The position numbers were made by a program, and so were the translations under genes. Shown here in pieces: positions 2,660 through 50,536 of a stretch of 64,000 nt of DNA (its first letter is position 1; each line of letters starts with the position of its first letter). Origin of the DNA: an uncultured Thalassospiraceae bacterium. Lineage in GTDB: Bacteria > Pseudomonadota > Alphaproteobacteria > Rhodospirillales > 2-02-FULL-58-16. Where the stretch lies: positions 28,702 through 92,701 of the forward strand of contig CAZWEZ010000002.1 of NCBI GenBank assembly GCA_964632795.1, in the 5' to 3' direction. The notes beneath the pieces are model-generated. The model was not told the origin of the DNA. It worked only from the letters and a program-made list of their open reading frames with translations, and made no database searches.

Positions 2660-3807
2660 GCCCGCCCATGAGTCCCCCGGCGGCGGACCGCCTGCGCGTC
2701 GAGCTGGGCCCGCGGAGCTACGACATCGTGGTCGGCGAGGGCCTGCTGGCCGAGGCCGGGCACCACCTCGCCCCCCTGCTGGCGGGTTCCGGCGCGGTCG
2801 TCGTCAGCGACGACAACGTGGCCCCGCTCTACCTGGGCGAGGTCGAGGCGTCCCTCGACGCGGCGGGGGTGGAGCACGCCTCCATCGTCCTTCCCGCCGG
2901 CGAGCCGACCAAGGACTTCGACCACCTTCGCGTGCTCACCGACAAGCTGCTGGAGGCGCGGATCGAACGCTCGTCCCTGGTCGTCGCGCTGGGCGGCGGG
3001 GTGGTCGGCGACATCGCCGGCTTCGCCGCCGCGATCACCCTGCGCGGGCTGCCCTTGGTCCACCTGCCGACGACCCTGCTGGCCCAGGTCGACAGCGCGG
3101 TCGGCGGCAAGACCGGGATCAACGTCCGGGCCGGCAAGAACCTGATCGGCGCCTTCCACCAGCCGCGCCTGGTGCTGTCCGACATCTCCACCCTGGACAC
3201 CCTGACGCCACGCGACCTGGTGGCCGGCTACGGCGAGGTGGTCAAGTACGGGCTGATCGGCGACGGCGACTTCTTCGCCTGGCTGGAGGCCAACGGGGCG
3301 GCGCTGTGCGGCGGCGACACGGCGGCCCGCCGCCACGCCGTGCTGACCAGTTGCGCCGCCAAGGCCGCCATCGTCGCCGCCGACGAGAGGGAATCGGGGG
3401 TCCGCGCCCTGCTCAACCTGGGCCACACCTTCGGCCATGCCCTGGAGGCGCGCAGCGGCTATTGCGAAGCCCTGCTGCACGGCGAGGCGGTCGCCATCGG
3501 CATGGTGCTGGCCTTCGAACTGTCGGCGCGCATGGGCCTGTGCCCCGGCGGGGACGGCCACCGGGTGCGCCGCCACCTGGCCGCCATCGGCCTTCCCGTG
3601 GCGCTGGCCGAAATCGCCGATTCGTCGTGGACCGTCGAATCCCTGATCGACCTCATGGGAGCGGACAAGAAGGTACGCGGCGGCAAGTCCACCTTCGTGC
3701 TGGCCCGGGGCATCGGCAAGGCCTTCGTGTGCCGCGACGTCGCCCTCGACGACGTCCGCGCCCTGCTCGACGACGCCCTCGGCGAACAGGAAGAAAATGG
3801 TGGCTGA
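2656..3807 (+). CDS. aroB: 3-dehydroquinate synthase
   Basis: This is the C-terminal 383 codons of track ORF 1573..3807. Diagnostic motifs are GGGVVGDIAGFAAA, LPTTLLAQVDSAVGGKTGIN, NLGHTFGHALE and HGEAVAIGM. The GTG at 2656 overlaps the aroK stop (GTGA); ATG at 2668 is an alternative start. Confidence 0.9.
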   Translation: MSPPMSPPAADRLRVELGPRSYDIVVGEGLLAEAGHHLAPLLAGSGAVVVSDDNVAPLYLGEVEASLDAAGVEHASIVLPAGEPTKDFDHLRVLTDKLLEARIERSSLVVALGGGVVGDIAGFAAAITLRGLPLVHLPTTLLAQVDSAVGGKTGINVRAGKNLIGAFHQPRLVLSDISTLDTLTPRDLVAGYGEVVKYGLIGDGDFFAWLEANGAALCGGDTAARRHAVLTSCAAKAAIVAADERESGVRALLNLGHTFGHALEARSGYCEALLHGEAVAIGMVLAFELSARMGLCPGGDGHRVRRHLAAIGLPVALAEIADSSWTVESLIDLMGADKKVRGGKSTFVLARGIGKAFVCRDVALDDVRALLDDALGEQEENGG

Positions 3808-9683: not shown

Positions 9684-9737
9684 ATGGCTTGGGCCGTAGA
9701 GACCCTCGACAAACGGGTGGACCGTGAGATCAAAGCT
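9684..9737 (+). pseudogene. Remnant of a RelE/HigB-family toxin gene (first ~18 codons only)
   Basis: ATG at 9684 encodes MAWAVETLDKRVDREIKA, which resembles N-termini of RelE/ParE/HigB-type toxins. The frame then runs out of register through the antitoxin gene and stops at 9812. Confidence 0.35.
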
Positions 9738-10020
9738 CCGCGATCTGAAGAAGGTCCTTCTCCAGGACCCCGAAACCCGCGCCGAATACGACGCCCGCGC
9801 TTCGGAGTATGAACTTGCCGGCACCCTCATCGCGGCCCGCAAGACGGCGGGCCTGACCCAGCAACAGGTGGCGGAACGGATGGGCACTAAACAAGCCGCC
9901 GTCGCCCGCATGGAAAGCGGCGCCCAAAAACCAAGCTTCAAAAGCATCGAACGCTACGCCAAAGCCACCGGCCACAAAGCCCACATAACCCTGACCCCGG
10001 CGGGCCACGATAACGCATGA
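9724..10020 (+). CDS. HTH XRE-family antitoxin (HigA-like), orphan
   Basis: A 98-aa product with a GTG start. It has the HTH motif GLTQQQVAERMGTKQAAVARMESG and an N-terminal DPETRAEYDA segment typical of HigA-like antitoxins. Confidence 0.8.
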   Translation: MRSKLRDLKKVLLQDPETRAEYDARASEYELAGTLIAARKTAGLTQQQVAERMGTKQAAVARMESGAQKPSFKSIERYAKATGHKAHITLTPAGHDNA

Positions 10021-10150
10021 GGGGTTTCGGGCGGGGGTCTGTATGGCAAGGAACTTGAGTTCCGATGCGCTGCTCAGGCAACATCTACTCCAGCTACGGC
10101 TATTTGGCCCACAGCAAACATTCCGTTGAAAAAGTGTTTTGATGGATTGC

Positions 10151-11872
10151 CTATTGATGGTTATGATCGATGTCATACTCATCTAGCTCTGCGTGGATTG
10201 ATCCATTACTTTCCAAGAACTGCAAAGGTTCAACCAGCATTCCCCGTCGCTTTGCAGCCTTTTTGAAGAGTCTCCGAATAAAGATCCTCCGAGCTATGTG
10301 TATTTTAGCAGCATCAAAAATCCGGTCTTCAAGAAATGTTACATTTGCATCTAACATTTTTGAAAAAACCGGGTCTCCAGTAACGGCGGAGATAATGTCT
10401 TTGTCCTTTGTCCACTTTCGCCTTACTGCTTCGTAATACGGAAGCCAATTTTCACTGTAGACGCCAGTTTTTTTGAATTCTGATCGCCATCCCCATTTTG
10501 AAAGTGAAACCGATAATAGACCGCGCTCCCGGAGCATACCGAGCATTGCAAAGACAACTGAATTTGGCCTTTTATCGAAAGGAGGCAATTCTATTTCGTC
10601 AAAGCTAATCCGTAAAACAGCTCCTGTGAGCAGGCACCATGTTATTTCGCTATCATGGGCATGTTGTATGTTAGTTCTGATTGTTGTTTTCACCCAAGTT
10701 ACTACCCTCTTTCTAATATCCTGATCACCACATATCGACTGGTGATTAATTAGAAACGCTGCTACATGATGCATGCATGACGGGAAATCCCGCGCTAACC
10801 GGAACATTGCTTCAAGAACCAGCTCATAGTTCTCTTGAAAAATATTGAGCCGCGATAGGCGTCGACATGCCCAACTCGCTGGTGCGCCTGTTTCAGCTTC
10901 TGTACAGAAATGCAAGGTGTGATCAACAAAACGGTATATATCACTCGCTTGCTTAGCTTGATATTTGCTAGAAAGAACGACTGAATCGAAGTCAAGTTTC
11001 CATTTTTCCTTAGCTAACGAACGAGATTTAGAAACAAACGTCTTTTTTTCATTCAGTTGCAGATTGAACTTCCACAAGGCAGCACGTAAGGCACCAAGCG
11101 CCGCTTCCGCCGTATTCACGTCATCAAACCCAATCACGTAATCGTCTAAGAGACGGAACGCGGGGCTACCGCGAATCAAAGATGAAAGATTCTTGTCAGC
11201 TTCTACACCTGCCAAAAGAACTTCCGCGATGATCCGCGATGTATCGGGGCCAACGGGAATTCCGAAAGTTTCTCTCGACTGACATAGCTGAAGAGCCTTA
11301 TCAAGATCATTGGACCAATGATTGTTTAACTTGCTTCGATTTTTTTCAATCCATTCTTTAACATTTTCCTTCCCAAGAACCGCCCACGGTATCGAGTGCG
11401 TATAAATCGTGTAAAAGAATCGAGAAATATCTGCTTGCAACACGTATGGACATTTCGAGTAAAGACTTGCAGCTAGTACGTCTTTCTTACGAAAATCTAA
11501 CCCTTCAAACGCCTTTTGTTTTTTTGGATCCTCGCTTGTGCGATAAAGCGATTTACCTCCTTCCCTTATGATTTTTTTTATTTTGGAACGATTTTTTGTT
11601 ATCAGAAGTGATAAATTCAATTGTGCGAGGGGATGTACCAAGGCAAGATTTCGACGTCCACTAACAGTTCGAGGGAATGTAAATGTTTCGTAATTTGTCG
11701 ATCCCTTAATTAGGTCTTTCTGTAATTGTTTCAAAAAATTATATTCGGTATCGCAAAAAGCAGAAAAATATTTTGCTGTTACTACTGGCGGGATTTCCAT
11801 CGGAAGGTAGGCCGTACGAATGAGCGCGGCCAAGAATTCGCGCTGTCTAGATGGTCGTGATGGTGATTTCAT
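10151..11872 (-). CDS. Stand-alone reverse transcriptase of the UG/Abi (defence-associated) type
   Basis: The track ORF is 10151..11884 (TTG start); ATG at 11872 is the more likely start. RT motifs in track numbering are SGRRNLALVHP (74-84), QADISRFFYTIYTHSIPWA (150-168, motif A Asp152), GIPVGPDTSRIIAEVLL (208-224, motif B) and FRLLDDYVIGF (243-253, Asp247-Asp248 at nt 11141-11146). Residues about 290-577 are helical-looking with no motif I recognise. The gene is strongly AT-rich compared with its flanks. Confidence 0.8.
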   Translation of the reverse strand: MKSPSRPSRQREFLAALIRTAYLPMEIPPVVTAKYFSAFCDTEYNFLKQLQKDLIKGSTNYETFTFPRTVSGRRNLALVHPLAQLNLSLLITKNRSKIKKIIREGGKSLYRTSEDPKKQKAFEGLDFRKKDVLAASLYSKCPYVLQADISRFFYTIYTHSIPWAVLGKENVKEWIEKNRSKLNNHWSNDLDKALQLCQSRETFGIPVGPDTSRIIAEVLLAGVEADKNLSSLIRGSPAFRLLDDYVIGFDDVNTAEAALGALRAALWKFNLQLNEKKTFVSKSRSLAKEKWKLDFDSVVLSSKYQAKQASDIYRFVDHTLHFCTEAETGAPASWACRRLSRLNIFQENYELVLEAMFRLARDFPSCMHHVAAFLINHQSICGDQDIRKRVVTWVKTTIRTNIQHAHDSEITWCLLTGAVLRISFDEIELPPFDKRPNSVVFAMLGMLRERGLLSVSLSKWGWRSEFKKTGVYSENWLPYYEAVRRKWTKDKDIISAVTGDPVFSKMLDANVTFLEDRIFDAAKIHIARRIFIRRLFKKAAKRRGMLVEPLQFLESNGSIHAELDEYDIDHNHQ

Positions 11873-11921
11873 TGGGTTGTCCAATCGTTAAAGAATCGCG
11901 TGGATAAAAAATTGCACCTGT

Positions 11922-11949
11922 ACTTTACGCTGATAGGAATAATTGTCGA
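11922..11949 (-). promoter_or_regulatory. Candidate sigma70-like promoter for the RT gene
   Basis: On the minus strand the sequence reads TCGACA (11949-11944), a 16-nt spacer, then TAAAGT (11927-11922). This lies about 50 nt upstream of the RT start. The call is by eye only. Confidence 0.3.
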
Positions 11950-12019
11950 TAGCATAGGTTATCGGCCAGCCAAGAAATACTACCCCTCCCTCCCCCTCAC
12001 CGCCAAGTCTCCGCAGACG

Positions 12020-12054
12020 AAAAACCGGCGCGCCCCTGATGGACGCGCCGGTTT
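12020..12054 (-). terminator. Rho-independent terminator hairpin
   Basis: A 9-bp GC stem (ACCGGCGCG at 12024-12032 with CGCGCCGGT at 12044-12052) encloses an 11-nt loop. On the minus strand it is followed by a T5 run (the complement of A5 at 12020-12024). It lies downstream of the flavoprotein gene and upstream of the RT promoter. Confidence 0.6.
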
Positions 12055-12078
12055 GTTCCGACTTCGAGGTTCCGAGAG

Positions 12079-12101
12079 TTCCGGGGACATGACACTTAAT
12101 T
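12079..12101. repeat. Solo copy of the RAYT-flanking REP sequence
   Basis: TTCCGGGGACATGACACTTAATT matches the 24-bp inverted repeat at 33370-33393 (TTCCGGTGACATGATACTTAATTG) with 2 mismatches. Confidence 0.55.
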
Positions 12102-12294
12102 CCGACAATTGAATTACCAATAATCACCCATGACAATCGCTCCCGCTCCACCTCATCCCGTAACCTCTGAAATTCCATTCGATTCTTCGCGGAGCCTTAT
12201 CTTTGCTTATCCGCGTTCATCCGTGTCCATCCGCCCTGCGGCCCAAAGCCTCCGGGCGACGGGCCGTGTCCATCCGTGTCTCCCCTCCCCCCCC

Positions 12295-13039: not shown

Positions 13040-13420
13040 CATCATACCAGCCAGCGCATGTGGTTACACATGCGCTGGCTGGCAAGCGCGACCGCGCGTC
13101 GCCGCTTATGCGGCGAGCCAAGGGCCATGTCGGGTTAGTGTTGCTCCGCTTCGCTCCGCGAGCCCCTCAGTCGCCGGGCGGGCCGGTGGCCCTTGGCTAC
13201 GGGCCTACGGCCCGACGCGCTGGCGCGCTTTTCGACATGGCATGATGCCATGTCGAATCGATAAACAATCGACGAATGTGCAGGAGGCCAGCCTGGCCCT
13301 ATCAAGCCTGTCTCCAAACCGGCATGGCCCCCGGCCATGCCGGCAAGCGCGACCGCGCGTCGCGACTTATGTCGCGAGCCAAGGGCCACCGGCCCGCCCG
13401 GCGCCTGAGGGGCAGCGTAA
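13040..13420. repeat. Cluster of REP-like nested hairpin repeats
   Basis: Two direct copies of GGCAAGCGCGACCGCGCGTCGC-N-CTTATG-N-GCGAGCCAAGGGCCA lie at 13081-13127 and 13343-13389. Each is preceded by a different perfect hairpin. An inverted partial copy (13158-13198 versus 13378-13415) and a further hairpin at 13241-13257 are also present. Confidence 0.6.
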
Positions 13421-27802: not shown

Positions 27803-28291
27803 ATGCAACGTTTCGCCGAGAATGACAGTCGGCGGGGGCACGGGCGGATCATGTTCCGGCGCCGCGACAGCGTCGGCCATCTGGTCGCCATGGCCCGCCG
27901 GCTGCTGGCCCGGGCCCTTCACACGCGGACCATCCGCCACGGCGTGCCGATCGGCCAGTGGTCGGTGCTGGTCGTGCTGTGGGAGGAGGACGGCCTGGCC
28001 CAGAACGAGCTCGCGCGGCGGGCCGCCATCGCGCCGCCGACCCTGGCCCGGACCCTCGAGCGGATGGAGCGCGACGGGGTCGTCGAGCGGCTCCGCAACC
28101 GCGACGACCGGCGGCGCGTCGACGTCTTCCTGAGCGGCCGCGGCCATGCGCTGCGCGACGTCTTGGTGCCCGAGGCGATCGAGGTCGGGCGCCTCGCCAC
28201 CGCGGGCCTGGACGACGGCGAGCGGGCCCAGCTGCGCGACCTGCTCGAACGGCTGATCGCCAACCTGGAGGGGCCGTCCGAGCCCGCTTGA
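27803..28291 (+). CDS. MarR family transcriptional regulator
   Basis: Has the winged-helix text LAQNELARRAAIAPPTLARTLERMERDGVVERLRNRDDRRRVDVFLS. ATG at 27851 is an alternative start. It corresponds to the last part of track ORF 27326..28291. Confidence 0.85.
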   Translation: MQRFAENDSRRGHGRIMFRRRDSVGHLVAMARRLLARALHTRTIRHGVPIGQWSVLVVLWEEDGLAQNELARRAAIAPPTLARTLERMERDGVVERLRNRDDRRRVDVFLSGRGHALRDVLVPEAIEVGRLATAGLDDGERAQLRDLLERLIANLEGPSEPA

Positions 28292-28449
28292 TACCAGCGG
28301 TCCTTATTCCTGACCCCATGTGATCGCTTTTCCCGTCCTCTCGGGGCGTCGGAACCGCTCGCCGATGCGCCGCATCGCCTTCGCGCCCCCTCCTGCCGAG
28401 AGGACGGGAAAAGCGATCACATGGGGTCAGGAATAAGGACCGCTGGTAT
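28291..28449. mobile_element. MITE-like palindromic element (54-bp perfect arms, 51-bp centre)
   Basis: The arm at 28291-28344 (ATACCAGCGGTCCTTATTCCTGACCCCATGTGATCGCTTTTCCCGTCCTCTCGG) is the exact reverse complement of 28396-28449. The ends can be read as CCAGCGG... arms flanked by TA on each side. It has no coding capacity. Confidence 0.6.
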
Positions 28450-28502
28450 AACCCCGGCCCGGCCATGCGCCCGGAGCAGGGCTGGGTTGAGCGGAACGTA
28501 TA

Positions 28503-33200: not shown

Positions 33201-33383
33201 GTGACCCGCGAGATCGCCGTCGGCGCCCCGTCCAGCCAGTGGTGGACCCAGTTGTCGACGGCCATCGTCTTCGGGCTCGGCTTCGCCACCGTGCTGACCC
33301 TCCTCGTCACCCCCAGCGCCCTGATGGTGCGGGCCAACCTCAGGGCCTGGAAGATGCGCCGCCGCCGAATTCCGGTGACATGA
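30234..33383 (+). CDS. RND efflux permease (AcrB/AcrD/AcrF family)
   Basis: A 1049-aa product whose ATG at 30234 overlaps the adaptor stop (ATGA). It shows a 12-TM, two-large-loop architecture by eye and typical family text throughout. Confidence 0.9.
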   Translation: MKSIIDAAIGRARMVLASLALILIAGTVAYIDIPKESDPDINIPIIYVRMEHDGISPEDAERLLIRPLEEELRIVEGVKEMRSTGYEGGAYVVLEFEAGFDADKAMEDVREKVDLAKPELPADTDEPTVHEVNFSLFPVIVVTLAGEVPERTLMRLANDLQDAVEGISSVLKVEIAGDRDQVVEVLIDPVKVESYGLTPDQAINIVRRSNLLVAAGAQDTGRGRFALKVPGLLETVFDIIALPVVVEGDAVVRLGDIAEIRRTFKDPESFARVDGRPAIGLEVSKRTGENIIETIERVRQVVEAERAVWPDGLRQAVQVAFSQDKSDDIRTMLADLQNNVIMAVLLVMIVVVAALGPRTAILVGIAIPGSFLIAILVLGGLGLTINMVVLFSLILAVGMLVDGAIVVTEYADRKMTEGEHRRTAYALAAKRMSWPIIASTATTLAAFLPLVFWPGVVGEFMKFLPITLLATLSASLLMALIFVPTLGSFIGRPGGTVDAATMKGLAASAGAGDLSALGGITGAYLRVLGVALNHPAKVLLVALALLIGVQWAYASFGKGIEFFPEVEPKFAKLQVRARGNLSIHEKDVLMRQVESRIPRNGEFASVYTRTGKEPNSQEAEDIIGTITLEFVDWDKRRKADRILAEIQRNTADLAGIFVDSRKAEEGPHAGKPVQIELSSRYPELLPGAIATVRRKLDGIAGLINLVDSRPLPGIDWQLEVDRAQAAKFNADVSIIGSAVQMVTTGIMLGDYRPDDSDDEIEIRARYPRPYRTIEQLDNIRINTDLGRVPISNFVSRLAKPAVGTVTRTDGRRVMTVKADVMEGVNVDHKVGEIQAWLKTAGLDSRVEIAFKGEDEEQKKAEAFLIKAFAVALFIMAIILVTQFNSFYSALLILSAVVMSTIGVLGGMLILDQPFGIIMSGIGVIALAGIVVNNNIVLIDTHDRLSEETGETPRQVILRTGAQRLRPVLLTTVTTMLGLMPMVLGVNIDFVTREIAVGAPSSQWWTQLSTAIVFGLGFATVLTLLVTPSALMVRANLRAWKMRRRRIPVT

Positions 33384-34139
33384 TACTTAATTGTCTCTCT
33401 CACTCTTTCTGTGCTAGGTTTTTCTCATGGCACGATTTGCGCGGGTGGTGGCGCCGGGCATTCCTCATCATGTGACGCAGCGGGGCAACCGGCGGCAGAC
33501 CACATTTTTCAACGATGAAGACTATGCGGCCTACCTGGATTTGTTGGCCGAGCAGTTGGCCCGCGCCTCGGTGGCGCTGTGGGCCTACTGCCTGATGCCG
33601 AACCACGTGCACCTGATCCTGGTGCCGGAAACGGAAGACGGCCTGGCCGTCGCCCTGGGCGAGGCACACCGCCGCTACACCCGACGAATCAACTCCCGCG
33701 AGGGTTGGCGGGGTTTTCTGTGGCAGGGCCGTTTTGGCTCGTTTCCCCTGGAAGGCGATCACCTGCTGGCGGCGGCGCGCTATGTGGAATTGAACCCCGT
33801 GCGCGCAAAGTTGGCGAGGGGGCCCGAGGACTGGCCGTGGTCCAGCGCCCGCGCCCATCTGGCGGGGCGCGACGGCGGGGCGCTGTCGGTCCGCCCTCTT
33901 CTCGATCGGGTCGGCGACTGGCGGGCCTTTCTCGACGGCGGTCTTGGCGCGGAGGCTCTCGACGCCCTGCGCCGCCATGAGCGGACAGGCCGGCCCCTCG
34001 GCTCGACGGCTTTCGTGGAACGGCTGGAAGGTATGCTCGGCCGCCCCCTCAAGAGGCGCAAACCGGGACCCAAGCCGGCGGCGGAATGAACGGGGATGTT
34101 TGCGGCGCGCAAGGGCAATTAAGTATCATGTCACCGGAA
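33370..34139. mobile_element. RAYT unit: Y1 transposase gene bracketed by perfect 24-bp inverted repeats
   Basis: TTCCGGTGACATGATACTTAATTG at 33370-33393 is the exact reverse complement of 34116-34139. The stop codon of the RND gene (33381-33383) lies inside the left repeat. Confidence 0.7.
33427..34089 (+). CDS. REP-associated tyrosine transposase (RAYT, IS200-like Y1 transposase)
   Basis: A 220-aa product. It has the HUH motif context CLMPNHVHLILVP and the catalytic Tyr context ARYVELNPVRAKL. The N-terminal GIPHHVTQRGN is typical of this family. Confidence 0.8.
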   Translation: MARFARVVAPGIPHHVTQRGNRRQTTFFNDEDYAAYLDLLAEQLARASVALWAYCLMPNHVHLILVPETEDGLAVALGEAHRRYTRRINSREGWRGFLWQGRFGSFPLEGDHLLAAARYVELNPVRAKLARGPEDWPWSSARAHLAGRDGGALSVRPLLDRVGDWRAFLDGGLGAEALDALRRHERTGRPLGSTAFVERLEGMLGRPLKRRKPGPKPAAE

Positions 34140-34169
34140 CTCAGTTTCGATTAGGCGCCGCCCCGGGCC

Positions 34170-38635: not shown

Positions 38636-38904
38636 TAGTGTCCTGGTTCCTAAGTTGGTGGTGTTTAGGATCGCTTTTCCCGGCCTCCGGGTAGGAGGCG
38701 CCGCGCCGGCGATGCGGGTCCATCGGCAAGCGGCGCCGACGCCCTCCGGAGGCCGGGAAAAGCGATCCCGTGGGCGGCCATGCAGGCCCCTCGGACATCG
38801 TCGCGCGGCCCTTGTGATGGACCGCCATCACGGCGGACCGCGCTCCTAGCCGAGGGGTCTGCATGGCCGTCCTAAACACCACCAACTTAGGAACCAGGAC
38901 ACTA
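38636..38904. mobile_element. MITE-like element with 35-bp perfect terminal inverted repeats and internal hairpins
   Basis: TAGTGTCCTGGTTCCTAAGTTGGTGGTGTTTAGGA at 38636-38670 is the exact reverse complement of 38870-38904. The outer TA of each end could be a TA target duplication. An internal hairpin shares the core GATCGCTTTTCCCG-CCT with the element at 28291. It has no coding capacity. Confidence 0.65.
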
Positions 38905-43092: not shown

Positions 43093-43383
43093 ATGGCCAG
43101 ACGCTGCGCCCTCACCGGCAAGGGGGTCCTGACCGGCAACAACGTCAGTCACGCCCACAACAAGACCCGCCGCCGGTTCCTCCCCAACCTCCAGGAGGTG
43201 TCGGTCCTCAGCGACGCCCTGGGCCTCTCGGTGCGCCTCAGGATCAGCACCCACGCGCTGCGCACCATCGAGCACAAGGGCGGCCTGGACGCCTACCTGC
43301 TGGGCACCCGGAACTCCAAGCTGCCCCCCGAGGCGTTGCGCCTCAAGCGTCGCATCCGCAAGGCCCAACCGGCGAGCCCGTAG
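43093..43383 (+). CDS. rpmB: 50S ribosomal protein L28
   Basis: [34 protein letters not shown] is the canonical L28 N-terminus. Confidence 0.9.
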
Positions 43384-43578
43384 ATTAATGGTGACTGCAG
43401 AAAATGGTGACTGTATATAGTTTTTGATAGGAAATTAAATGGTGACTGAATTAAATGGTGACTGTATATAGTTTTTGATAATAAAAACTATATACAGTCA
43501 CCATTTAATTCAGTCACCATTTAATTTCCTATCAAAAACTATATACAGTCACCATTTTCTGCAGTCACCATTAATCTA
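43381..43578. repeat. Perfect 198-bp AT-rich palindrome (96-bp arms, 6-nt centre GATAAT)
   Basis: I checked the arms (43381-43476 and 43483-43578) base by base as exact reverse complements. Each arm is two roughly 45-bp direct repeats and carries four copies of AATGGTGACTG (43387, 43403, 43438, 43454). I counted 28 G+C in the 96 nt of one arm. Confidence 0.9.
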
Positions 43579-43582
43579 CGGG

Positions 43583-44560
43583 CTACCTCAACTCGAACAT
43601 CATCAGCAGGGTCCGCTGGGCGAAGCTGAAGTTGTCGTCGGAAACCAGGTAGAGCAGGGTTTCGCCGTCGGCTCCCCGACGGGCGTCGATGCCCTCGAAG
43701 TTGGCGACGTTCAGCGGCGCCTTGATCTCGGCGCGCACCCGGCCCTCGAGCCGCGCCCCGGGGACCACCGCCTCATGGTCGACGCGGACCAGCCGGGCGG
43801 CGACGCCCTCGAACAGCGAGTAGCGGCGCATCAGCACCATCACGTCGCCGCCGGGCAGGACGGTGGCGCCGGTCGGCTGGAAGCGGCCGTCGGTGGCCAG
43901 GGTCAGCATCGACCAGCCGCCCTCGCCGCCGACCCAGCCGACCATCGCGTCGCCCTCGCCGAGGCGCTCGGAGAAGGCCAGCAGGCGGCCGTCGTCGAGC
44001 CGGGCCAGGGCCTCGATGCCGCCGTTCCTGGGCGCCTTGTCCAGTCCCTCGGGCGGCGGCAAGGGGACCGCCACCGGATCCCCCGGCCGGTAGCGCCACA
44101 GCCGGTGGCGGCGCTCGAAGGCGACCACGAAGCCGCCCCCGGGGTCGCCGGCCATGGCCTCGGCGTCGCTGTTCTTCTTGCCCCTCAGCGCCATCCCGTC
44201 GAGGTCGGTCAGCGGGGCGAGGGAGGCCTCGCGCAGCCCGGCCAGGTTTCCCGCCGGGTCGTAGACCAGCCGGGCGGTGAGGCGGTATCCCCTGTCCGAC
44301 AGCGCGGTCAGGCGGCCGCCGTCGGCGCTGACGGCCAGCGCCGACAGGCCCCCGAACCGGGAGTCCGGCGAGCTCAGGACCAGCCCCCCCCGGTAGCGCA
44401 GGGCGCCGAAGACCGTCTGCCGGGGGGCTTCGGGGTCGAAGGGAAGCGGGGCGGCGTCGACCTCGATGGTCCCGGCGCCGGCCGGCGGCGCGGCCAGCAC
44501 CGTGAAGGCGGCCAGCGCCAGGGCCAGAAGGGGGACCGCCAAATTGAAACTTTTCATCAC
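43583..44560 (-). CDS. Secreted esterase-like-activity-of-phytase family protein
   Basis: A 325-aa product with the signal peptide MMKSFNLAVPLLALALAAFTVLAAPPAGA. SRFGGLSALAVS and SDDNFS blocks match my memory of the family. Confidence 0.7.
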   Translation of the reverse strand: MMKSFNLAVPLLALALAAFTVLAAPPAGAGTIEVDAAPLPFDPEAPRQTVFGALRYRGGLVLSSPDSRFGGLSALAVSADGGRLTALSDRGYRLTARLVYDPAGNLAGLREASLAPLTDLDGMALRGKKNSDAEAMAGDPGGGFVVAFERRHRLWRYRPGDPVAVPLPPPEGLDKAPRNGGIEALARLDDGRLLAFSERLGEGDAMVGWVGGEGGWSMLTLATDGRFQPTGATVLPGGDVMVLMRRYSLFEGVAARLVRVDHEAVVPGARLEGRVRAEIKAPLNVANFEGIDARRGADGETLLYLVSDDNFSFAQRTLLMMFELR

Positions 44561-45595: not shown

Positions 45596-46582
45596 ATGGC
45601 GAGCGCCAGGAAGAAGGTGTGGGTGGGGTTCGATCTCGGCGGCACCAAGATGCTGGCCACGGCGTTTGACGGTTCCTTCAAGGCGCTGGGCCGCAAGCGG
45701 CGCAAGACCAAGGCCAGCAAAGGCCTCGAGGCCGGCCTGGAGCGGGTCGTCGGGACCATCCGCGGGGCGCTGGACGGGGCCGCCGTCGCCCCCGACCGAA
45801 TCGCCGGCATCGGCATCGGCTGCCCGGGCCCCGTCGACATGGAGCGCGGCGTGGTCCTCGAGACCCCCAGCCTGGGCTGGAAGAAGGTGGGGGTGAAGGC
45901 GGCCCTCGAAGAGGCCTTCGGCTGCCCGGTGGCGGTGGCCAACGACGTCGATCTCGGGGTCTACGGCGAATACCGGCGCGGCGCGGCGCGCGGCGCGCGG
46001 TGCGTGGTCGGCGCCTTTCCGGGCACCGGGATCGGCGGCGGCTGCGTCTACCAGGGACGGATATTCCACGGCAAGGCCGCCTCGTGCATGGAGATCGGCC
46101 ATATCCCGGTGGCCGTCGACGGGCCGCTGTGCGGCTGCGGCCGGCGCGGCTGCCTGGAGACCTACGCCGGCCGCCTGGCGATCGCCGCCGCCGCCGCCAC
46201 CGCCGTCCAGCGGGGCCAGGCGCCCCACCTCCTGAGGCTGGCCGGCACCGACCCGGCGGACATCCGTAGCGGCGCCCTGGCCGCCGCCGTCAAGGCCGGC
46301 GACCTGGCGGTCGAGCGGATCGTGCGCGACGCCGCCTGGCGCCTGGGATGGGCGCTGGCCGGGATCGTCAACCTGATGGCCCCGGACGTGGTGCTGCTCG
46401 GCGGCGGGCTGGTCGAGGCGATGCCCGAGCTGTACCGCGGCGAGGTCGAGCGCTCGCTCGAGGACCGGGTCATGCCGTCGTACCGCGACAGCTTCCGCAT
46501 CGCCATCGCCGATCTCGGCGACGAGGCCACGGTCACCGGCGCCGCCGCCTGGGTCCGCCGGACCGTCGAAGGGGACGACTAA
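45596..46582 (+). CDS. ROK family sugar kinase/regulator
   Basis: Has GFDLGGTK at the N-terminus and the ROK zinc motif GHIPVAVDGPLCGCGRRGCLETY. Confidence 0.85.
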   Translation: MASARKKVWVGFDLGGTKMLATAFDGSFKALGRKRRKTKASKGLEAGLERVVGTIRGALDGAAVAPDRIAGIGIGCPGPVDMERGVVLETPSLGWKKVGVKAALEEAFGCPVAVANDVDLGVYGEYRRGAARGARCVVGAFPGTGIGGGCVYQGRIFHGKAASCMEIGHIPVAVDGPLCGCGRRGCLETYAGRLAIAAAAATAVQRGQAPHLLRLAGTDPADIRSGALAAAVKAGDLAVERIVRDAAWRLGWALAGIVNLMAPDVVLLGGGLVEAMPELYRGEVERSLEDRVMPSYRDSFRIAIADLGDEATVTGAAAWVRRTVEGDD

Positions 46583-47593: not shown

Positions 47594-48344
47594 TCACCTC
47601 GATTTAACGCCTCGGCCGGGGACACGGACCCGTTCAAGCAGATCGAGAAATTCTTGGACGTCAGCTTGGGCAAGATCATTGAACGGGTATGGACCGCCGA
47701 CCCATTTCTCGTGCACTTCGTTCATCAGAAATTTCCATCCCCTCATGTGAGACTTCCGGAACAATGGAAAAAAGCCAGTTCTCAAATTGTTTGGCCTCGA
47801 TCCGACCGGAATCAACTCTCTTGTGGCTCTCGCTTGCTGGCCAGTAGATCAGAGAGAGTTCCCAATCCCATCCAAACTCTTCAGGGAGTTCATTCCATAG
47901 GCTGGACTTCACGACAAATCCTAGAGGGCAATAAACGGAAAGTTCATCGTTGCGGAACGCCTTTAATAAATGCCCTTCTGTGTTTTCGAAACGCTCCCAT
48001 CTTCCGTAGTCGTCGGTCTCGTATTTTCGCACCTCGCCAATCTTGTTCAGCCAGGAAAAAACATCTCCCTGCCTGTTTTTTAGGTTAGCAATCTCCGAGT
48101 TAATCCATGAAATTTCATCTTTCCCCAGGACTTTTCTTAATTCATATTGCTTAGCATTAATCTCAAGATTGATAGCTTCAAGCTCTCGCTCAAGTGGAGC
48201 TCTCGCCTCCTTGATCGGTCTAGGATCAACAGCCTTACGGCCCCAAATTTCATAACCATTCTATTCTGAACCATACAACCGCATTCCAAGCGCATTAAAG
48301 GCATCCGACAGAAAGAAATCTCGGTGAAAACTTGATGAATTCAT
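47594..48344 (-). pseudogene. Disrupted partner gene of the HEPN-like gene (in-frame TAG plus homopolymer frameshift)
   Basis: The ATG at 48344 overlaps the upstream stop (ATGA). Codon 28 is TAG (48261-48263), yet the same frame continues as protein-like text into track ORF 47676..48032. At the A6 run (47768-47773) the plausible reading shifts into track ORF 47594..47815. I recognise no family. Confidence 0.55.
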
Positions 48345-49510
48345 GTGTTGCTATGCCTTTTGAATATCTTTGAGTTTTCTAGTCGAAGATCCATTACCGC
48401 TGGCCACTCACCCGGTGGCATTGCATTCAGATAACCGCCTGCCAAATGGCGGACAGCTTGAATGTAGATTTCAACAGAATTCTCTTGGTCCCGACCAATC
48501 AGATAAGGTTCTCGCCCGTGCGCAATTTGATTCCGATCAATCGTTAAATTCTTGAGTTTTTCACGTACCGGCTTCTCCACAAGATTTGTCGTTCGAATAG
48601 CCTTCGCTAATTTCGAAGGCGTACGTTTGAGTATTGCGATACTATGCTTACTGAGCATGATCTCGGTGGCGATACAGAGGTTGAGGATAGCTTTATCGTC
48701 CCGACCAGCCATGTAATCAGCCATCCCATCGTAAAATGCTAGCATTCCTTGGTCGGCTTTCCGTCTTTCTTGGGTATGATGCGCCGCAAGAAGCCACCAC
48801 CCCTTATTAAGTGGACTACCAAATCCAAGGGAAGGCTGATATTGGACAGCACCATACCATGTCGATTCAATTTCACCTGCTCCGCGATGCCGTAACTCTG
48901 TGGCAATGTTGAAATCTTTTGTGATCGCCCCACCCATTCTTAATGGCCCAAGCATCGGATTGTGGGACGCCCTAATCCACCATTGATGCGTATACTGGCT
49001 TATGTGATCTAGCAGAAGGTTCAGTATTTCTATCGCGTCTACCCCGTGTTGGACATCAAGGCGGAATGCTCGGCACCATTTAGCAGTGTCACTAACCCCG
49101 TGTTCCATCCTGACACCACGGACGGCACTTGATGGGAGTTGAACGGCTCTTTCGACACACTGTGTACCCTCCGGAACGAGTACTTCATTGAAAGCTCCAG
49201 ATGTTTCCGACTTCTCATCAACCGGAAAAGGGGGGTAAATTCGGACGATTTTTCCATCTCGTTGAATAGTCAAAACATCGGTAACTTCACCGACATCCAC
49301 CAAAATTGATGTTGGCCTGAGATATATGTGAGATTCAAAATCTGGTGCCAAGCTATCATGGTAAGCCTCGATTTTGCTATCCGACAAGTTGGGCCATTCA
49401 AGCCCTTTTTCGAGACTTTTCTCTTCGGACATGTGAGCTTTAACCCCATATTGGCACCAATCGCGGGAGATTTCTCCGACCGGAAAATGATCACTGTTTA
49501 TGTTTGACAC
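48341..49510 (-). CDS. HEPN-like (Rx4H) protein, possibly ApeA-like defence/toxin RNase
   Basis: The track ORF is 48341..49555. I prefer GTG at 49510, which is preceded by AGGAGG (49517-49522) with a 6-nt spacer. The C-terminal ~130 aa is a helical bundle carrying LTIDRNQIAHG (R341-x4-H346 in track numbering, nt 48518-48535). The N-terminal ~270 aa is unassigned. The gene is AT-rich. Confidence 0.6.
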   Translation of the reverse strand: MSNINSDHFPVGEISRDWCQYGVKAHMSEEKSLEKGLEWPNLSDSKIEAYHDSLAPDFESHIYLRPTSILVDVGEVTDVLTIQRDGKIVRIYPPFPVDEKSETSGAFNEVLVPEGTQCVERAVQLPSSAVRGVRMEHGVSDTAKWCRAFRLDVQHGVDAIEILNLLLDHISQYTHQWWIRASHNPMLGPLRMGGAITKDFNIATELRHRGAGEIESTWYGAVQYQPSLGFGSPLNKGWWLLAAHHTQERRKADQGMLAFYDGMADYMAGRDDKAILNLCIATEIMLSKHSIAILKRTPSKLAKAIRTTNLVEKPVREKLKNLTIDRNQIAHGREPYLIGRDQENSVEIYIQAVRHLAGGYLNAMPPGEWPAVMDLRLENSKIFKRHSNT

Positions 49511-49792
49511 CCCTTGCCTCCTACTAACCGTATAAGGTTTTCTATAGTTTTTCACTGTATCCTAGAAGAATGCAATTGGTTGATTTGTGATGGCATTATA
49601 CCTCGGCCACTTCTAGCTTCTCAATTCTGCATTACTATCTAGCAGAACCAGATAGCAGCGTGTCATATTCACCACAGGCTACGCTTTTTTTCTCCTCCTG
49701 GTGCTTCCACAGCGCTTCCACGAATGATTATTGTGTTGAGCATGAGGCACAGAAAAACCCCATAACCAATTGAGGTAATGGGGTTAATTTTG

Positions 49793-50536
<744 letters not shown>

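Follow-up and report, generated by a model that had tools for sequence, protein, structure and literature searches.

A perfect 210-bp AT-rich palindrome between the convergent stop codons of rpmB and a phytase-like gene in an uncultured Thalassospiraceae bacterium

In a 64,000-nt stretch of the genome of an uncultured Thalassospiraceae bacterium (assembly GCA_964632795.1, contig CAZWEZ010000002.1), referred to here as the window, we analysed a long palindrome which runs from the stop codon of rpmB, the gene for ribosomal protein L28, to the stop codon of a convergent phytase-like gene. The palindrome is a perfect inverted repeat of 210 bp, AT-rich within a GC-rich genome and, on present evidence, a real and unusual but isolated, apparently single-copy structure. 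The account that we tentatively prefer, while rating it somewhat short of probable, is that an AT-rich spacer grew by stepwise duplication, was made palindromic in situ by a snap-back template switch, and has since either been tolerated or come to serve as a two-way terminator or an RNA hairpin.

Structure of the palindrome and support from separate assemblies

A repeat search returned two arms of 102 nt (43375-43476 and 43483-43584), 100% complementary to each other and 6 nt apart; among the inverted repeats of the window this is the longest by far, and the only perfect one. A preliminary description of the same DNA had placed here a 198-bp palindrome with 96-nt arms (43381-43476 and 43483-43578): those arms are correct as far as they go, but fall 6 nt short on each side. 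The features of the locus are the following.

43375..43584, no strand: whole palindrome, 210 bp, made of two 102-nt arms and a 6-nt centre
43375..43476, plus strand: left arm, host-derived and GC-rich over its first 9 nt (43375-43383), AT-rich repeat DNA over the other 93 nt
43483..43584, minus strand: right arm, exact reverse complement of the left arm
43477..43482, plus strand: asymmetric centre GATAAT, a hairpin loop with AGTTTTT on one side and AAAAACT on the other
43384..43434, plus strand: tandem unit A, 51 nt, two 11-mers 16 nt apart and then TATATAGTTTTTGATAGGAAA; mirrored at 43525-43575
43435..43485, plus strand: tandem unit B, 51 nt, 44/51 identical to unit A; mirrored at 43474-43524
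43387..43464, plus strand: four copies of the 11-mer AATGGTGACTG in the left arm (43387-97, 43403-13, 43438-48, 43454-64), 16, 35 and 16 nt from start to start
43495..43572, minus strand: four copies of the same 11-mer in the right arm (43495-505, 43511-21, 43546-56, 43562-72)
43456..43511, no strand: innermost terminator-like hairpin, TGGTGACTGTATATAGTTTTT, loop and AAAAACTATATACAGTCACCA, then TTTAATT; the minus strand is identical by symmetry
43093..43383, plus strand: rpmB, ribosomal protein L28, 96 aa; open reading frame (ORF) identical to protein record P0121, Pfam PF00830
43583..44557, minus strand: phytase-like (esterase-like) gene, 324 aa, Pfam PF13449; protein record P0001 is 100% identical

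The AT-rich core (198 or 192 bp) has a GC content of 29%, against 65.3% for the window, in agreement with the compositional contrast first noted. The further suggestion of foreign or specialised DNA fits this composition, but a source sequence was not found. The outer 9 nt of the left arm, AGCCCGTAG, are GC-rich host sequence and coincide with the last 9 nt of rpmB, AGC CCG TAG, stop codon included. Their mirror image in the right arm, CTACGGGCT (43576-43584), provides two of the three nucleotides of the convergent gene's stop codon. The location between two convergent stops, rpmB TAG at 43381-43383 and CTA of the facing ORF at 43583-43585, was thus correctly described. The centre GATAAT is not self-complementary, and stop codons occur within the palindrome in all three frames and in both directions.

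Each arm is internally repetitive. All eight copies of AATGGTGACTG previously counted are exact, four on each strand, and all lie within the palindrome, while shuffled sequences predict 0.49 matches with up to one mismatch; the sole other match in the window (at 3796, 1 mismatch) was dismissed, as it sits in the end of a coding gene. A second motif, TGTATATAGTTTTTGATA, had been reported in four copies, a slightly generous figure: three are exact, and the fourth, interrupted by the asymmetric centre, carries 2 mismatches. Two direct repeats per arm are indeed present, with a period of 51 nt rather than the roughly 45 bp first proposed, and are 90% identical over 48 nt. Unit B extends 3 nt beyond the centre, and the similarity between units continues there. 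One strand of the palindrome folds at -179.7 kcal/mol as RNA (z = -29 against shuffles) and at -119.2 kcal/mol as DNA (z = -31.5).

The sample is sediment from the Arctic Mid-Ocean Ridge, core GC08; libraries were prepared with Nextera DNA Flex without multiple displacement amplification, sequenced as 2x150 nt and assembled with MEGAHIT at k 27-117 (PMC7768721). In a re-assembly of BioSample SAMN11268109 deposited at ENA (scaffold_568, 35.7 kb, with other boundaries), the same 210 bp are found, identical and with GATAAT in the same orientation; outside the palindrome, scaffold and window differ by one mismatch in 16.2 kb. A third assembly, made by Logan at k=31 from run SRR8799001, contains a contig (L011) which reads from the phytase-like gene into the arm and ends after exactly 30 nt (k-1), AGCCCGTAGATTAATGGTGACTGCAGAAAA. 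The base preceding this shared stretch is T in the Logan contig and G on the rpmB side. A k=31 break after 30 shared nucleotides with two different predecessors means that both junctions between flank and arm are present in the reads, and where two flanks run into one and the same sequence, nothing but an inverted repeat can connect them.

Position 46335 of the window is the sole base difference from the ENA re-assembly, and L011 begins 9 nt away, at 46344; the two observations are consistent with strain-level variation in the sample.

The possibility that the palindrome is an inverted chimera, produced during assembly or library preparation at a locus which truly has one arm or another spacer, is largely, though not fully, removed by these results, and we hold it to be very improbable. 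Fold-back chimeras classically yield perfect palindromes, a single short-read data set lies behind everything, and L28 of this locus (P0121), found in the NCBI and ENA lists, is missing from the Logan list, whereas P0001 appears in all three. Random chimeras, however, would not reach the consensus, identical 210 bp were obtained in two assemblies with different contig boundaries, both junctions are found in the reads, the libraries were made without multiple displacement amplification, and the top MEGAHIT k, 117, exceeds the 102-nt length of an arm.

Proposed formation in place and possible role as a two-way stop

Three levels of repetition can be distinguished: 16-nt units, 51-nt tandem units differing at 5/48 to 7/51 positions, and inverted arms with 0 differences in 102 nt. 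At the divergence of the tandem units, the chance of finding no mismatch over 102 nt is about 2e-5. Since the arms are 100% identical and the tandem units have diverged by 10-14%, the inversion must be much younger than the tandem duplication, or else the arms have been homogenised, which bears out the initial proposal of a very recent origin or active maintenance.

The presence of 9 nt of host flank inside the palindrome argues for its formation in place, and not for the insertion of a ready-made element. When the element is removed in silico (assuming a TA duplication, a GC duplication or none), rpmB is left without a stop for 17 to >25 codons and the two genes overlap by tens of codons; insertion of a ready-made element is unlikely, because both stop codons would have had to come from it. 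Both proteins stop where their homologues stop. L28 homologues are 94-104 aa long, mostly 95-101, with variable tails, and the present protein has 96; the phytase-like protein ends in ...MMFELR*, one residue shorter than most homologues (...FELxE*).

A possible course of events starts from a 16-nt unit, ATTAAATGGTGACTGx, which would have doubled, and continues with the tandem doubling of a 51-nt block, whose two copies would then have drifted apart by 10-14%. Much later, an intra-strand snap-back template switch, nucleating at the hairpin AGTTTTT-GATAAT-AAAAACT, would have inverted one arm: synthesis of the new strand would have run back along the arm and into the rpmB 3' end for 9 nt, before rejoining the original template where the facing gene has its stop codon and replacing the earlier spacer. 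Perfect arms, an asymmetric 6-nt loop, 9-nt ends derived from the host and the residue lost by the facing protein are all explained by such a switch; the similarity between units 3 nt past the centre is expected if the loop region pre-existed. In Proteobacteria, inverted repeats that were imperfect are known to be perfected by template switching (PMC5941160, PMC7202029), and hairpin-templated correction of the same kind might also keep the arms perfect.

As to function, a transcript from either strand would fold into one long hairpin, each successive segment of its stem finishing with a U-rich tail of the GUCACCAUUU(A/U) type, and this hairpin would serve both genes as a bidirectional transcription stop, an insulator and a 3'-end structure. 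The stem-loop lies directly downstream of both coding regions. In a lenient scan the inner hairpin (stem TGGTGACTGTATATAGTTTTT) followed by TTTAATT was the top terminator-like site on both strands within 20 kb, which lends some support to the predicted terminator role first put forward; folding energies of the 66-nt inner hairpin are -35.7 kcal/mol (plus strand) and -35.6 kcal/mol (minus strand), and each further GTCACCATTT(A/T) segment repeats the arrangement of stem and T-tail with a longer stem. The tail itself, with 5 T in 8 on both strands, is an interrupted tract and is base-paired in the full hairpin, and the GC-rich parts of the stem are limited to the GGTGAC/GTCACC segments. A sigma-70 promoter scan found none inside the palindrome.

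Stem-loops between convergent genes have been reported to set the position of bidirectional termination (bioRxiv 10.1101/2022.10.23.513370), and hairpins of repetitive extragenic palindromic (REP) sequences in 3' untranslated regions act as terminators and mRNA stabilisers, and are linked with higher expression of both genes of convergent pairs (bioRxiv 10.64898/2026.03.23.713779). Small hairpins with an A-tract, a stem and a T-tract were also found at convergent junctions of other genomes (contigs L007, L017, L018 and L012). The Rfam search returned only sub-threshold plant microRNA-precursor hairpins, such as MIR810 (109.8 bits against a gathering score of 170), which reflect the generic shape of a long hairpin and not homology.

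Several points weigh against formation by template switching followed by use as a terminator. The origin of 29%-GC DNA within a 65%-GC genome is unexplained. The order of events was deduced from a single sequence, there being no allele devoid of the right arm and no close relative. A return of the switch exactly at the stop codon is somewhat surprising, and selection against longer copies explains the coincidence with the stop codons in just one direction. On the functional side, the stem greatly exceeds those of known intrinsic terminators in length and AT content, its U-tracts are interrupted (TTTAATT), and 102 bp of perfect double-stranded RNA would be a substrate for RNase III, which could destabilise the mRNA of the essential rpmB gene. 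To these must be added the dependence of all three assemblies on one Illumina read set, and a search for further copies in the same genome that was confined to 64 kb.

Other readings of the palindrome and the search for relatives

A different view takes the palindrome for a low-copy, hairpin-forming, non-autonomous mobile element, of the foldback, miniature inverted-repeat transposable element (MITE) or REPIN type, inserted between the two genes. We consider this unlikely. On such a view, a transposase whose gene lies elsewhere, perhaps a Y1/HUH enzyme that works on single-stranded hairpins, would bind the eight 11-mers as its subterminal sites. The wholly palindromic build with repeated subterminal motifs, the terminal inverted repeats, the foreign-looking composition and the three-frame stop codons at both ends speak in its favour, as do other, GC-normal palindromic interspersed repeats in the genome. 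Its outer ends, GTAG (43380-43383) and CTAC (43576-43579), also resemble what we take to be the heads of REP sequences; as TAG is the rpmB stop codon, a coincidence is possible. The 9-nt ends, being GC-rich, resemble host sequence and not element sequence, however, and the rpmB stop codon is lost in every simple-insertion reconstruction. A direct target duplication is undefinable, only the self-complementary TA or GC being readable as one.

The same genome offers a candidate partner, a gene for a REP-associated tyrosine transposase (RAYT)-like Y1 protein 9.3 kb away, with its own flanking 27-nt inverted repeats. The palindrome arm, however, shows no significant similarity to these repeats (as high a score is reached by 575-750 of 2000 shuffles). 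Within -6 to +10 kb of the palindrome, Pfam annotation revealed no transposase, integrase, Rep or Par gene, and among the well-supported ORFs of the whole window the only genes for DNA transactions are the RAYT-like transposase and a DRT-type reverse transcriptase.

The RAYT-like gene (33427-34089, plus strand) encodes a 220-aa IS200-like Y1 transposase or RAYT-like protein recognised by Pfam PF01797 (40.5 bits, cut-off 23); the NCBIfam model REP_Tyr_transpos gives 66.8 bits, under its cut-off of 80. Its inverted repeats, GAATTCCGGTGACATGATACTTAATTG, are 96% complementary and delimit the region 33367-34142; with a third, degenerate copy at 12081-12102 they amount to three copies in the window, none like the AT-rich palindrome arm. 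The GC-normal palindromic repeats form an intergenic interspersed family, REPIN- or MITE-like in appearance, with members at 28278-28462 (67-nt arms, 93% complementary) and 38636-38904, 81% identical over 106 nt.

A comparison with relatives, in which an empty site was sought at their rpmB/phytase-like junctions, recovered none, synteny being insufficient. The closest non-self homologues are 64% identical for the phytase-like protein and 87% for L28; the L28 homologues at 74-87% identity carry the names Rhodospirillales, Rhodospirillaceae, Dongiaceae and Magnetospira. At the junctions of relatives, either the neighbours are different or an EamA gene or an IS256-type transposase separates the phytase-like gene from rpmB. 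In one 58% relative (contig L015, 4783-6039), an IS256-family transposase (Pfam Transposase_mut) is inserted in the EamA gene between the two, which indicates that the rpmB-proximal region accepts insertions in this group.

Searches for copies weigh further against mobility. The palindrome is apparently single-copy, no second copy of it being found in the 64-kb window; the double 11-mer pattern was absent from 185,579 species genomes (0 matches); and plasmids and phages, searched by blastn, yielded nothing significant (E of 0.7 or worse). A 36-aa peptide from the right arm, searched against 1.84 billion proteins, found only low-complexity repeat proteins and no further copies, and two further patterns had 0 matches in viral contigs. 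The early suggestion of a MITE or of the footprint of a mobile element thus failed to find the copies, in the window or in the databases searched, on which it would rest. In JGI metagenome contigs, the double 11-mer pattern identified 8 loci, of which 7 are eukaryote-like (six share one 16-nt minisatellite, and L008 is a single pair); the remaining one, L007, may itself be a chance match.

L007 is a Burkholderiales contig of 69% GC, where an MFS transporter gene and a sensor kinase gene converge and a ~40-nt array, AAATGGTGACTGTTGAAAATGGTGACTGTCACCATTTT, containing the same 11-mer pair, is placed exactly between their stop codons. Its conservation, with one substitution, in a 99% relative (L017) counts in favour of a mobile element. 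An 11-mer within a 16-nt tandem will, however, match somewhere by chance in a collection of this size, and we therefore treat L007 as an analogue, at most as a possible relative.

Two observations stand beside these searches. At the convergent transporter/sensor kinase junction, L007 (5779-5816) and L017 (1756-1793) hold the AAATGGTGACTG array, while a 91% relative (L018, 2919-2990) has an unrelated set of GC-rich hairpins, three copies of GGGCTCTGACCCCGATT, folding at -51 kcal/mol; hairpins at this junction thus appear to be replaced quickly. In viral contigs, the double 11-mer pattern gave one match, L001 (IMGVR_UViG_3300005095_000067, 2003-2050), with three exact 16-nt tandem repeats, TGTTACTAATGGTGAC, which have the 11-mer in common with the palindrome. 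Their surroundings are intergenic, AT-rich and full of repeats, and a 540-aa ORF for a putative terminase large subunit-like protein, judging by its translation, follows downstream; the shared 11-mer is probably due to chance.

The palindrome could also be a maintained site for protein binding or recombination, a reading which we judge improbable and which comes in two versions. One is an iteron or centromere-like array; the other is a giant site of the tyrosine-recombinase type, with inverted arms round a 6-bp asymmetric crossover, arm-type-like CAGTCACCAT motifs and TATCAA boxes resembling those of IHF. Eight identical 11-mers in two symmetric sets around a 6-nt non-palindromic centre are suggestive of such a site: four plus four exact copies agree with the definition of an iteron as several direct repeats of 10-22 bp, and in a binding array all eight would be perfectly conserved, but this identity follows trivially from recent duplication, and the spacing of 16, 35 and 16 nt has no regular helical phasing. 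The layout of 102 nt, GATAAT and 102 nt fits a tyrosine-recombinase site weakly, since any snap-back palindrome has such a shape, and the centre is found in a single orientation in two assemblies.

ATGGTGACTG matches at 9/10 the 'int 2' (P2) arm site of lambda attP, ATAGTGACTG, in a post hoc comparison involving one 10-mer; with no integrase present, the resemblance is no more than a lead. Genes for an integrase, recombinase, Rep, ParA, ParB or ParR are absent from the 64-kb window by Pfam, and the RAYT-like and reverse transcriptase genes are both far away; the iteron or centromere-like array originally listed among the candidates thus lacks a cognate gene, among the neighbours and in the whole window. 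A replication terminus or dif site finds no backing either, the cumulative GC skew showing no switch at the locus.

A target of protelomerase, or a replicated hairpin telomere, was discarded, as the centre is asymmetric over 6 nt, the flanks are ordinary, unmirrored chromosomal genes, and no resolvase was found in the window. We also judge improbable a further proposal, in which the palindrome would be no accident but a cis element that is maintained as part of a DNA transaction system based on hairpins, for instance a foldback-type mobile or recombination substrate, with eight CAGTCACCAT-like sites served by a distant Y1/HUH enzyme or tyrosine recombinase and arms perfected by hairpin-templated repair; the short AAAATGGTGACTG arrays which L007 and L017, from unrelated GC-rich Proteobacteria, carry at convergent stop codons would then be instances of the same horizontally spreading 'portable two-way stop signals'.

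Genomic context and comparison with known systems

Upstream of the palindrome, the plus strand carries icd and rpmB; downstream lie the phytase-like gene, on the minus strand, a gene for a 286-aa unknown protein, and ROK-family and creatininase-family genes. Three further regions of the window deserve mention. The 577-aa reverse transcriptase (10151-11884, minus strand) is of the defence type (PADLOC Drt6, E = 5e-124, with matches also to the Drt4 and AbiK models); it is located in a low-GC islet (10071-12189, 27-45% GC) and adjoins a gene for an XRE-type helix-turn-helix protein (9724-10020). Positions 13084-13413, with a flavodoxin-like gene on one side and an MTTB-family gene on the other, hold a nest of GC-rich repeats, inverted (94-nt arms at 80%) and direct (copies of 44-50 nt at about 90%). 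Another low-GC islet, 47700-49870, adjoins a tRNA-Met gene (49792-49866, minus strand); it contains a 404-aa ORF (48341-49555, minus strand) and a 118-aa ORF, neither with a Pfam or PADLOC match, and may be the remnant of a genomic island.

If real, the element is a natural near-perfect palindrome of about 200 bp persisting in a bacterial chromosome. It would also record the birth of a palindrome, in which a short AT-rich unit grew in tandem and a large template-switch inversion then ended exactly at two stop codons, and would illustrate how completely an AT-rich hairpin can fill the spacer downstream of an essential ribosomal-protein gene. SbcCD cleaves long near-perfect palindromes in E. coli; a perfect one of 460 bp is lethal there, and a 20-bp spacer makes it repairable (PMC4245961). 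The palindrome described here is a potential cruciform and SbcCD target; it is probably a young structure, or else one that a subsurface population with very slow replication can tolerate. A testable idea is that selection against palindromes is relaxed where, as in subsurface sediment, replication is extremely slow.

Its similarity to the engineered E. coli palindromes (460-bp perfect and 480-bp interrupted, PMC4245961; interrupted, PMC3315005) lies in the length, the near-perfection and the very short spacer, and implies replication-dependent hairpins open to attack by SbcCD. The present one is, in contrast, natural, 210 bp long with a 6-nt spacer and carried by an uncultured, slow-growing host, and its persistence is deduced only from assembly consensus.

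With REP, BIME and REPIN sequences and their RAYTs it shares the character of an extragenic palindrome at gene 3' ends, a RAYT-like gene in the window and, perhaps by coincidence, the GTAG...CTAC ends, and REPs are common between convergent genes. It differs in being single-copy instead of present in hundreds of copies, in being unrelated to the RAYT-flanking repeats and AT-rich in a GC-rich genome, and in being far longer and more perfect than REPINs. Eukaryotic foldback elements and MITE-derived hairpins are likewise wholly palindromic, with arms made of short tandem repeats; the present palindrome differs in having no family of copies, no target duplication and a bacterial host.

Bidirectional intrinsic terminators, in which a stem-loop is combined with an A-tract and a T-tract (bioRxiv 10.1101/2022.10.23.513370), resemble the palindrome in their site between convergent stops, in forming a hairpin on both transcripts, and in the A-rich run before and T-rich run after each stem segment (AAATGGTGAC...GTCACCATTT). 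Known stems are GC-rich and of about 5-15 bp, in contrast with the 102-bp arms, 29% GC core, interrupted U-tracts and nested tandem repeats found here, and termination by this palindrome is a prediction from its sequence.

Quasipalindrome correction and inverted duplication by template switching (PMC7202029, PMC5941160), finally, offer a parallel for perfect arms beside diverged tandem units, for the short loop bounded by a micro-inverted repeat and for a symmetry reaching into the host flank. Known events fix a few bases in short inverted repeats, whereas about 100 nt would have been copied here in one event, and for this palindrome the pre-event allele was not observed. With one locus known, in one metagenome-assembled genome, the palindrome does not as yet amount to a new system; among the hairpin elements of convergent gene pairs it is best classed as an extreme variant, the product, on the account preferred here, of template switching.

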